Below, in pieces: positions 5,866-58,126 of a stretch of 64,000 nucleotides of DNA. How positions within the stretch are numbered: the first letter of the stretch is position 1; each line of letters begins with the position of its first letter. Below the pieces are notes generated by a model. It worked only from the letters and a program-made list of their open reading frames with translations. It was not told where the DNA came from and searched no databases. The translations under genes and the position numbers were made by a program. This DNA is from a virus (lineage: Duplodnaviria > Caudoviricetes), in IMG/VR virus record IMGVR_UViG_3300030376_008307, positions 1 to 64,000 of that record; one strand, 5' to 3'.

Positions 5866-5878
5866 ACAATTTTTTTCC

Positions 5879-5887
5879 ATATTTATA
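5879..5887 (+). promoter_or_regulatory. Putative late promoter ATATTTATA. Also at 8971, 10760, 12433, 14870, 30669, 40151; ATATGTATA variant at 8649, 11340, 23045, 56913
   Basis: The same 9-mer recurs at gene boundaries, mostly 14-40 nt upstream of structural gene starts. Confidence 0.7.
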
Positions 5888-5901
5888 ACAAAAATAAAAT
5901 T

Positions 5902-10744: not shown

Positions 10745-10790
10745 AAATGAAAAATAATAATATTTATAATAAAATAAAATAACATAAAAA

Positions 10791-12423: not shown

Positions 12424-12430
12424 TGCCTTT
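12405..12430 (+). terminator. Hairpin/terminator at end of the chaperone extension
   Basis: AAAGGCATCA-aagaaa-TGATGCCTTT perfect 10-bp stem. Confidence 0.6.
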
Positions 12431-12455
12431 CAATATTTATAATAAAACCTAATCA

Positions 12456-14870: not shown

Positions 14871-14908
14871 TATTTATAATAAATAATTAATTAATAAAAT
14901 TTAATAAA

Positions 14909-30646: not shown

Positions 30647-30690
30647 TATACTAGTAGTTATTTTCCATATATTTATAGTAAAACATTTAT

Positions 30691-40143: not shown

Positions 40144-40174
40144 TTCTCACATATTTATAACAAAATACAAAAAC

Positions 40175-42554: not shown

Positions 42555-42575
42555 GTTTAAAATAACATATTTTGG

Positions 42576-42606
42576 GAAAGGGCGCTATTAAGCGCCTTTT
42601 CTTTTT
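42576..42606 (+). terminator. Intrinsic terminator
   Basis: GAAAGGGCGCT-atta-AGCGCCTTTTC followed by a T run. Confidence 0.85.
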
Positions 42607-48570: not shown

Positions 48571-48642
48571 TGTCCTTTGGTGTAACTGGCAGCACGTCTG
48601 GTTTTGGTCCAGGAGATTGAGGTTCGAACCCTCGAGGGACAA
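48571..48642 (+). tRNA. tRNA-Gln (anticodon TTG)
   Basis: Acceptor TGTCCTT/AGGGACA; anticodon arm TCTGG-TTTTGGT-CCAGG; T-loop GTTCGAAC; no encoded CCA. Confidence 0.9.
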
Positions 48643-48656
48643 CTAAAAATAAAAAT

Positions 48657-52598: not shown

Positions 52599-52664
52599 TA
52601 AATTTGTACATATAATTTGGAAGGGCGCAAGCCCTTTCTTATATTTACGTTAAATAAAATAGTT

Positions 52665-56169: not shown

Positions 56170-56922
56170 ATGATAAATAAATCAAAATTACAATCAATAA
56201 TATCTAAATACTATTTAAATGGATTAGTTCAATCTGTAAGGTGGGAAACTAATGAAAATAAATTAAGTATTAGTTTTACATCAGAAAATAAAGATATAGC
56301 AGGGGATTTATTTTGTGAAAATTCTCCAGTTGAAAATAGTGAAATAGCAATATTTGACACAGCACAATTAAATAAATTAATATCAGTTACTAATGGTGAA
56401 TTATTACTTACTCTAGAAAAAGAACATAAAGTATTTTCTAAATTACATATTCAAGATAATTCATTTAATGTAGCTTATTCTTTAGCAGATTCATTATTAG
56501 TACCAAAAAGAGGAACTATTAATTTCCCAACTGAATATGATGTTACAATAGAATTAACTCCTGAAATAGTAAATAATTTTATTAAAGCTAAAAGTGCATT
56601 AACAGATATAAGTGATGTAATGATTAGTACAGAAGAAGATCCTGATAGAGGAACAGTAATACAATTTGCATTTGGGGATTTAAATAATTTTTCAAATAAA
56701 ATTAAATATATTGTAGATGAAAATATAGAAGTTACATTGGGTAAAGACTTAAAATTACCATTTAACTCAGATTCATTTAAAAATATATTAGCAGCAAATA
56801 AAGATTTAGAAAGTGGTAAACTTTCATTAACTGAAGAAGGATTTATGAAATTAGAATTTCAATCAGAAGATATAAAGACTTTATACTATATGGTAAGAAA
56901 AGAAGATGCCACATATGTATAA
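56170..56922 (+). CDS. DNA sliding clamp (gp45-like)
   Basis: About 250 aa, beta-rich; near PolB and clamp loader. Confidence 0.6.
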   Translation: MINKSKLQSIISKYYLNGLVQSVRWETNENKLSISFTSENKDIAGDLFCENSPVENSEIAIFDTAQLNKLISVTNGELLLTLEKEHKVFSKLHIQDNSFNVAYSLADSLLVPKRGTINFPTEYDVTIELTPEIVNNFIKAKSALTDISDVMISTEEDPDRGTVIQFAFGDLNNFSNKIKYIVDENIEVTLGKDLKLPFNSDSFKNILAANKDLESGKLSLTEEGFMKLEFQSEDIKTLYYMVRKEDATYV

Positions 56923-56998
56923 TAAATTGACCTAAGGGCGCAAGTTTTAAATTATTTATTAACCGCTGATCTTAATGACAGCATAAAAACAAAGTGAT

Positions 56999-57421
56999 AT
57001 GAGTACACATTTTTTAGAAAGATCATTCCATCCGTTTGATCTATTATTTCGAAATTTATTCGAAGCAAACACCCAATTCGTTCCGGCTATAGAAGCCAAA
57101 CAACAATACCCAATTAATATTTACGAAGATGATTCAGGTTTAACTTTTGAGTTAGCTTGCACTGGCATCCCTAAAGATGCTATTGAAGTTAAGTTAGAGG
57201 GAGACATGATTATCTTTAATTATGATAAGGAGAAAACACCAGAAACTCCTAACCGAAATTATATTCATAGAGGAATTGCAAAACGTTCTTTTAATTTAGG
57301 ATATAAAGTAGGAACTAAGTTCGACCTTAAAAAGGCAAAAGCAAATTTTAATGATGGTTTACTAATTGTGACTATTCCATTTGCTGAAGAAGCTAAGCCA
57401 AAAGTTTTGAAAATTAACTAA
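56999..57421 (+). CDS. Small heat shock protein (Hsp20)
   Basis: YPINIYE, YIHRGIAKRSF, ANFNDGLL.VTIP. Confidence 0.92.
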   Translation: MSTHFLERSFHPFDLLFRNLFEANTQFVPAIEAKQQYPINIYEDDSGLTFELACTGIPKDAIEVKLEGDMIIFNYDKEKTPETPNRNYIHRGIAKRSFNLGYKVGTKFDLKKAKANFNDGLLIVTIPFAEEAKPKVLKIN

Positions 57422-57494
57422 CCAAACGCGCCCTTTAGGTTGGTTTACCAATAAAATTTTCGTATATTATATTATAATAAAAAAATAAAGTTAT

Positions 57495-57791
57495 ATGACT
57501 ATTATCAAAGATGATTTACTAGAGCCTTATTTCATAGGCAAAGATGCATACTGTTATACAGCATATGAAGTAATTACCCCTCAGAAAAAATACCTAGCAG
57601 AAGGTAGTAAAGGAAAAAAATATGAAAAACCAATTGGCCATTATGCTGATTTTGGTTCTGCATTAGAGGCTATTATGAAAGCACAGCTTAATGTAAAAAA
57701 TGGAGAATATTCCTCAATTCAGAGTTATTTGGATAAATGGAATGAGATTAAAAATAATTTAAATAATATTAAAGAAAAAATTGCGATATGA
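57495..57791 (+). CDS. Hypothetical protein
   Basis: 98-aa ORF after the promoter at 57439-57468. Confidence 0.55.
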   Translation: MTIIKDDLLEPYFIGKDAYCYTAYEVITPQKKYLAEGSKGKKYEKPIGHYADFGSALEAIMKAQLNVKNGEYSSIQSYLDKWNEIKNNLNNIKEKIAI

Positions 57792-58126
57792 ATTTAGAAG
57801 CACTATTTAACGCTGTTATAGTTAAACCAATTGAGGCAGAAGAAACTAAGTATGGCTCAATTGTAGTTCCTGATATGGGAAAAGATGTTAACGAACATGG
57901 AGAAGTAATAGCTGTAGGACCTGGTCAACATACAATTTCAGGTACATTTATTGAAACTATGAGTAAAGTTGGGGATATAGTAATACTTCCAACTCAAGGA
58001 TTTACAAAATTACAGCATGATGGAGAAGATTATTATGTTGGTCCTGAAAATCAAATCTTAGCAAGAGTAAAAAAAGAAGTAGATTTTGAAAAAATATTAG
58101 AAGAAACTGAACCATTAAACGAATAA
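57788..58126 (+). CDS. groES: Co-chaperonin
   Basis: VIVKP, GSIVVPD, GEVIAVGPG, KVGD. Confidence 0.9.
   Translation: MNLEALFNAVIVKPIEAEETKYGSIVVPDMGKDVNEHGEVIAVGPGQHTISGTFIETMSKVGDIVILPTQGFTKLQHDGEDYYVGPENQILARVKKEVDFEKILEETEPLNE

Follow-up and report, generated by a model that had tools for sequence, protein, structure and literature searches.

To our knowledge, few bacterial mRNAs are known in which the 5' and 3' untranslated regions pair with each other (hbs, icaR, hok and RNAIII), each recognised by experiment in a single species. In the hbs mRNA of Bacillus subtilis, the transcript of a small and highly expressed gene, an intramolecular long-range helix between the two UTRs shields the leader from ribonuclease attack; this helix is 14 bp long, overlaps an RNase Y site and was shown experimentally (Braun, Durand and Condon 2017, PMC5737220). 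The hok mRNA of the plasmid R1 hok/Sok system is held in an inert, stable form by the tac/fbi fold-back between its 5' and 3' ends. In this closed form, translation is blocked via linked SD sequestration, and 3' trimming activates the message (PMC9841398). In Staphylococcus aureus, translation of icaR is repressed by base-pairing of the 3' UTR of its mRNA with the ribosome-binding site, and the 5'UTR-3'UTR duplex is cleaved by RNase III; RNAIII provides a further precedent for 5'-3' pairing (PMC7821165).

The locus analyzed here carries a predicted helix that encloses the complete hsp20 gene of an uncultured phage, an RNA structure of a rarely documented kind. As in hbs, the helix is intramolecular and joins the 5' UTR to the 3' UTR over a long range. 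It differs from the hbs helix in its length (18-19 bp, and 14-30 bp in relatives), in including the predicted extreme 5' end of the message and in the nature of the evidence, which is comparative. As in hok, the 5'-terminal nucleotides would pair with the 3' end, closing the whole message as a stable loop. Unlike in hok, the hsp20 start region is predicted not to be sequestered and the 5' arm to have no alternative partner. The UTR-UTR duplex is a potential RNase III substrate like that of icaR, but in the phage 57 nt separate the 5' arm from the AUG downstream of it, and the start region is predicted to take no part in the pairing. With arms in leader and trailer, predicted full-length pairing and compensatory changes, the phage helix would fall within the class of 5'UTR-3'UTR interactions represented by hbs, icaR and hok. 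RNase III substrates also include the rRNA processing stalks (the stems flanking 16S and 23S) and the T7 early mRNA sites. The hsp20 helix would resemble these, in which about two turns of helix bracket a functional RNA unit in a longer transcript and the ends stay paired or form a hairpin after cutting. Unlike the hsp20 helix, the rRNA stalks enclose a non-coding RNA and the T7 sites are local intergenic hairpins.

The locus belongs to a 95.6 kb IMG/VR virus sequence with an estimated completeness of 56% and a G+C content of 29%; the window analyzed is its first 64 kb. The genes are ordered, all on the + strand, as a gene for a 250-aa protein (56170-56922; without a Pfam match; 3' of split PolB genes), hsp20 (56999-57421; 140 aa; Pfam HSP20, E 8.3e-12; stop codon 57419-57421) and orf98-GroES-GroEL. 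Elsewhere in the window, a tRNA-Gln gene (anticodon UUG) occupies an intergenic position at 48571-48643, in the replication / 7-deazaguanine block. No GenBank phage close to this genome was found by megablast, and the relatives retrieved by tblastn with hsp20 were all below 40% identity. No terminator was found dividing hsp20 from either neighbouring gene. As none lies between the 250-aa gene and the 5' arm, read-through RNA from the 250-aa gene would include the full arm.

An initial sequence-only reading had claimed that 56924-56941 can pair with 57428-57446 through canonical pairs, G-U wobbles and one bulge, and the sequences of both arms agree exactly with that description. In the 5' arm (AAATTGACCTAAGGGCGC; 56924-56941, + strand), positions 56924-56929 make up an outer part rich in A/U, and 56930-56941 (ACCUAAGGGCGC) a core that is GC-rich; the 3' arm (GCGCCCTTTAGGTTGGTTT; 57428-57446, + strand) starts 7 nt after the hsp20 stop. 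Together they form 18 bp, including three G-U pairs (56927-56929 with 57441-57443), with one bulged U at 57434. In both the MFE and the centroid folds of 56913-57468 (whole-fold z -4.5), the helix encloses the whole hsp20 cistron, leaving a loop of 486 nt with the complete gene inside. The predicted pairing of the 5' UTR with the 3' UTR reaches -28.0 kcal/mol compared with -12.0 +/- 2.4 kcal/mol for shuffled sequences, none of 100 shuffles being as good. By themselves the arms form local hairpins of -1.2 and -2.2 kcal/mol, compared with -25.6 kcal/mol for the duplex, and the leader offers the 5' arm no other partner. A switch in which the long-range helix alternates with two local hairpins is disfavoured, as shuffled sequence folds locally at least as well as the arms do. 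A search of 56600-57800 against Rfam returned no credible hit at E values up to 10.

In a genome-wide scan of sequence pairs up to 3 kb apart, nine were at least as stable as the arm duplex, so the helix of this single genome is not by itself beyond chance. Placement and conservation raise the predicted helix above chance. It is the sole compact helix between neighbouring intergenic regions among the 110 intergenic pairs scanned, which contained no further gene-enclosing helix. A chance origin is ruled out by conservation across relatives rather than by the energy in one genome.

Conservation was assessed in two scans. The first used the hsp20 protein to retrieve viral contigs and yielded 80 loci with 100% to 52% amino acid identity. 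Setting aside one mis-windowed locus, each of the 56 distinct flank pairs was predicted to form the helix, with energies of -22 to -43 kcal/mol compared with about -12 kcal/mol after shuffling. The second was seeded with GroES, which avoids selection on hsp20, and gave 80 further loci, of which 56 contain hsp20. These added about 40 new distinct cases with hsp20 identities down to approximately 41%, and all but one have a compact helix. Overall, 83 distinct arm pairs were collected; they come from marine phages that have not been cultured, and hsp20 identity ranges from 100% to approximately 40%. All but one of these pairs form a compact helix of 14-30 bp (typically 16-28 bp with 0-2 bulges) in the same two places. 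Whatever the helix length, the distance from the end of the late-type promoter motif to the first base of the 5' arm is between -5 and +5 nt in most lineages, and nearly all relatives keep this motif upstream of the arm. The 3' arm starts 1-19 nt past the stop codon in all lineages, and only 1-8 nt past it in some. No such helix was found at the hsp20 genes of the cultured, T4-like cyanophages P-TIM40, S-CAM1 and P-RSM4 (z approximately 0).

Between clades, the arm sequences are entirely different while remaining complementary: the pairs include ACCUAAGGGCGC/GCGCCCUUUAGGU, GCAACUUAAGGGCGC/GCGCCCUUAAGUUGC, GAUCUUAGGA/UCCUAAGAUC, GCUAGGGCAC/GUGUCCUAGC, GGUAGGCCU/AGGCCUACC and GUGAAACCUUAGG/CCUAAGGUUUCAC. 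Covariation at relatives' hsp20 loci, which had been suggested as a check, was tabulated over the 83 distinct arm pairs with positions indexed from an AGG anchor. In this table, drawn from per-sequence duplex predictions for phylogenetically related sequences and hence with pairing partly built in, the pairing of the arms is kept and only the AGG/CCU core (A-U, G-C, G-C) is invariant, with 3-6 canonical pair types at every other position. When the 3' partners of the 83 pairs are permuted at random, canonical pairs drop to 46-74%. Per-sequence duplexes were used for the distant clades because a whole-region MAFFT alignment misplaces their 3' arm. An alignment-based count was made for 26 close and middle relatives, in which 91.5% of cells are paired compared with 25-47% when the partner is slid, with few double changes. 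In the middle clade (L025, L029, L035, L037, L096, L097), the inner end of the helix is lengthened by AAGUU paired with AAGUU; a G-G mismatch, itself conserved, lies within this extension and creates an internal loop that is symmetric.

The distribution of wobble pairs indicates which nucleic acid is paired. Within the core helix, 95 G-U pairs occur in the sense strand compared with 14 in the antisense strand, as would be expected if the G-U wobbles are, as originally claimed, a signature of RNA pairing. The sense strand is the more stable in 39 of 48 haplotypes, and A-C accounts for 2 of 32 single mismatches. Switches from G-U to A-U and from G-U to G-C occur in L151 and L120, and U-G to C-G columns appear in the alignment of relatives. 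These comparisons show that the predicted helix exists and is kept by selection in the sense strand. The proposed closed-loop fold of the hsp20 mRNA is supported by the MFE and centroid folds, by conservation, by compensatory change and by the sense-strand G-U bias.

The same arms could in principle be inverted repeats acting at the DNA level and forming no RNA structure; they would then serve as recombination sites or terminal repeats at the edges of a mobile cassette carrying hsp20. The arms accompany hsp20 where its neighbours differ, before the 250-aa gene in L061 and after other ORFs in L068 and L071. In addition, eight relatives lacking hsp20 (L113, L115, L126, L133, L135, L144, L146, L161) retain the order 250-aa gene, orf98, GroES, GroEL. 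Their gap of 40-78 nt holds the downstream promoter, sometimes together with a late motif, and contains neither the arms nor an arm-type hairpin. Given otherwise syntenic relatives with and without hsp20, the arm-leader-hsp20-arm unit behaves as an indel, and its presence, absence and relocation are what a mobile cassette would produce. Nevertheless, the arms diverge freely yet stay complementary, unlike protein-bound terminal repeats, and the helix boundaries follow the promoter and the stop codon. The strong sense-strand bias of the G-U pairs, the lack of inversion of the segment in any of about 180 loci and the absence of a recombinase in or beside the unit point to a structure of sense-strand hsp20 RNA rather than to a DNA repeat. 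We therefore consider such a cassette very unlikely.

Both arms adjoin promoter elements, as had been claimed: the left arm lies right after a late-type motif, and the right arm lies past the stop codon and overlaps the next promoter. The late-type promoter motif CATATGTATAATAA (56910-56925, + strand) overlaps the stop codon of the 250-aa gene; the form CATATGTATAAT spans 56910-56923, includes that stop codon and is immediately followed by the 5' arm. No fewer than 10 other genes, the majority of them from the structural block, are preceded by the late-type consensus CATAT(T/G)TATAA(Y)AA, the shortest leaders being 12-13 nt. In its longer form, CATAT(T/G)TATAA(Y)AAA, it is seen 12-29 nt before start codons, again mostly of structural genes; sites are at 5866-5901, 10745-10790, 12424-12455, 14871-14908, 30647-30690 and 40144-40174 of the window and at 83456-83489 of the genome. 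Since the leaders of other late genes extend only 12-13 nt past the motif, transcription must begin a few nt behind it. T4 late promoters serve as a model for the distance between late motif and transcription start. Judged from the motif and this analogy, the late hsp20 transcript would start at approximately 56929-56931, and its first ~12 nt would consequently be fully paired.

The promoter of orf98-GroES-GroEL (57439-57470, + strand) has TTGG at -33, a spacer of about 19 nt and TATATTAT at -7, with the -7 box at approximately 57463 and the TTGG element inside the 3' arm. A host-type motif, TTTGG...TTCGTATATT, occurs 13 times on the + strand with the layout TTTGG, approximately 19-20 nt, then (CG)TATATT(TA). 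The consensus for Bacteroidota sigma-A is a -33 TTTG and a -7 TAnnTTTG (PMC7366714). Both the downstream promoter and the 13 host-type elements appear sigma-A-like by this consensus. While the 3' arm overlaps the -33 element here, it lies in the promoter spacer in L053 and L070 and downstream of the -7 box in L075, and L055 has no recognisable promoter after the arm. This variable position argues that the 3' arm is not simply a promoter element.

We favour, with moderate confidence, the reading that the hsp20 message is a closed loop ("panhandle") whose ends are thereby defined and protected, possibly via RNase III or termination. The sense-strand helix would tie the 5' end of the transcript to bases past the stop codon and make the whole cistron a closed loop. 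In RNA from the late promoter, the first ~12 nt would lie flush within the GC-rich core, whereas the complete helix of 18-19 bp would arise in RNA that reads through from the upstream gene. The paired 5' end would hinder 5'-end-dependent decay; the paired 3' region would block 3' exonucleases and might offer a cut or termination site for read-through RNA. A monocistronic hsp20 message with defined and protected ends could give a high and lasting output of a chaperone that acts stoichiometrically. We infer from sequence where transcription starts, that a single RNA carries the two arms and that stability is affected. End protection is ranked first because in every lineage the helix extends to the predicted 5' end, and because closed 5'-3' pairing is known to stabilise the hbs and hok mRNAs. 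Two observations fit it less well: where the 3' arm follows closely on the stop codon, terminating ribosomes would open the inner end of the helix, and the L055 group, with no recognisable promoter downstream, would need read-through past the helix, which speaks against a strictly end-defining role. Logic of the T4 gene e type, in which a late promoter removes the 5' arm, was rejected since late RNA, with its inferred start upstream of the GC-rich core, would retain the helix.

End protection, an RNase III stalk and a long-range terminator are overlapping readings that sequence alone cannot separate. Under the second, the host enzyme would cut the ~20-bp helix in polycistronic read-through RNA and excise a monocistronic hsp20 message, parting it from the upstream replication genes and the downstream chaperonin genes; the cut product would keep its paired ends, which is where this reading merges with end protection. 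At typically 16-28 bp, the compact helices of the relatives fall inside the known size range of RNase III substrates. The lack of terminators on either side of hsp20 fits this process, as does the L055 group, whose downstream genes seem dependent on read-through, and a search for the RNase III family was positive in a Bacteroides control genome. Relative to roughly two turns of double-stranded RNA, however, the 18-19 bp of read-through RNA and the 14-30 bp of relatives compare with only ~12 bp in RNA from the late promoter, which is short for RNase III. Cleavage determinants are not identifiable in the sequence, and the phage itself has no RNase III gene in the 95.6-kb record, which covers about 56% of its genome. 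We regard excision by RNase III as unlikely, albeit credible. A split intrinsic terminator is an improbable reading: the emerging 3' arm would pair with the distant 5' arm and, with a U-rich stretch, free RNA polymerase after hsp20. It is suggested by the phage's own terminator-like hairpins near 42.6 kb (~42575-42605) and 52.6 kb (52619-52638), whose GC-rich stems (AAGGGCGC / GCGCC(C)TTT) with a U-rich 3' side are nearly identical to the hsp20 arms; these two hairpins and the 5' arm are the only three sites of GGGCG in 95.6 kb. The outer helix has an A-rich 5' side and a U-rich 3' side in most lineages, and a U run follows directly past the GC core in several (e.g. L058, L061, L070, L074). 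Yet the loop would be 486 nt, with a complete gene, rather than the 4-6 nt of the phage's own terminators or the 3-8 nt of known ones, and it is doubtful that such a loop would close while the polymerase pauses. Not every lineage has a U tract (exceptions are L110, L112, L076), the 3' arm alone forms no stable hairpin, and the A/U asymmetry may just mirror the fact that late transcripts begin A-rich. Read-through also appears necessary in the L055 group. The near-identity of the stems likewise gave rise to the idea that hsp20 had entered the loop of a pre-existing terminator hairpin; this is not supported, as the gaps of the eight hsp20-less relatives contain no such hairpin. The 52.6-kb hairpin itself lies in a promoter spacer.

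Regulation by opening of the helix is the least probable of these readings, and very unlikely. It would make the helix an RNA thermometer, or a hok-like fold-back that stays inactive until heat, 3' trimming or a helicase opens it. Genes for hsp20 are classic RNA thermometer targets, hok sets a precedent for an inert and stable 5'/3'-paired form, and the 3' arm lies inside the ribosome footprint of the stop codon in some lineages. In silico, though, the probability of the helix stays at about 0.9 from 10 to 55 C while the accessibility of the start region climbs only gradually, from 0.47 to 0.71. The start region is thus predicted to remain accessible with the helix formed, in contrast to the anti-RBS fold-back of the icaR / hok subtype, and the 5' arm has neither contact with it nor an alternative partner in the leader. 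An RNA thermometer was rejected on the basis of this predicted stability to 55 C and the distance of the helix from the AUG, and the thermosensor role raised by the sequence-only reading is accordingly disfavoured. Circularisation, also raised there, finds no support in the gene content of the record (~56% of the genome), in which RNA ligase is absent as well as RNase III.

Returning to the paired-end message, the more than 80 natural variants of the arms, drawn from a broad group of marine phages that have not been cultured, amount to a large mutational series for 5'-3' pairing. They provide strong comparative evidence that looping of a whole protein-coding message is a selected trait. With compensatory variants ready to hand, the locus offers a well-defined system for studying how paired ends influence the decay and processing of mRNA, as well as termination, in the Bacteroidota, a group in which RNA biology has received little attention. 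The long-range helix and the leader hairpin described below add two RNA motifs beyond those in Rfam.

The leader contains the small GCTG...CAGC hairpin that had been noticed at the outset. It is present at 56965-56982 (+ strand) as GCUG-A-UC / UUAAU / GA-CAGC with a bulged A and, together with its flanks UUAACC and AUAAAAA, spans 56957-56989. The hairpin was found in essentially all lineages, where it comprises a lower stem of 3-4 bp, the bulged A, two more pairs and a loop of 4-5 nt, mostly UUCG or UUAG, between flanks UUAACC and A(Y)AAA. Among 33 diverse sequences, pairing is complete (100% of cells) and compensatory change is seen at 6 of 6 pairs, with none of 500 shuffles as good. A covariance model (R1) built for it has a single match in the 95.6-kb genome, at the leader hairpin itself (E 7e-9), and no Rfam family corresponds to it. 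In the cyanophages P-TIM40, S-CAM1 and P-RSM4, R1 has no match at hsp20. By eye, the hsp20 leaders of these cyanophages carry a similar hairpin with a stem, a one-base G bulge, CC-UUCG-GG and then ACACAA (P-TIM40, L106 ~520-560; S-CAM1, L107 ~620-660; P-RSM4, L108 ~570-610), negative with both R1 and Rfam. The leader hairpin may be a protein-binding or stabilising element. More speculatively, and with low probability, arm, leader hairpin, hsp20 and arm could constitute a portable self-clamping expression module, end-to-end clamping being general and convergent in hsp20 messages. The clamped message would be a nuclease-resistant store, opened by a factor that recognises the AGG/CCU core and the bulged-A hairpin, which would couple chaperone synthesis to the state of infection.

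The hsp20 module, with both helix and leader hairpin, was also located with model R1 on short contigs (L191-L196) binned to Flavobacteriaceae, to Bacteroidetes and to one Microbacteriaceae MAG. These contigs are probably phage DNA, and such hints point to Flavobacteriaceae as the probable host of these phages.
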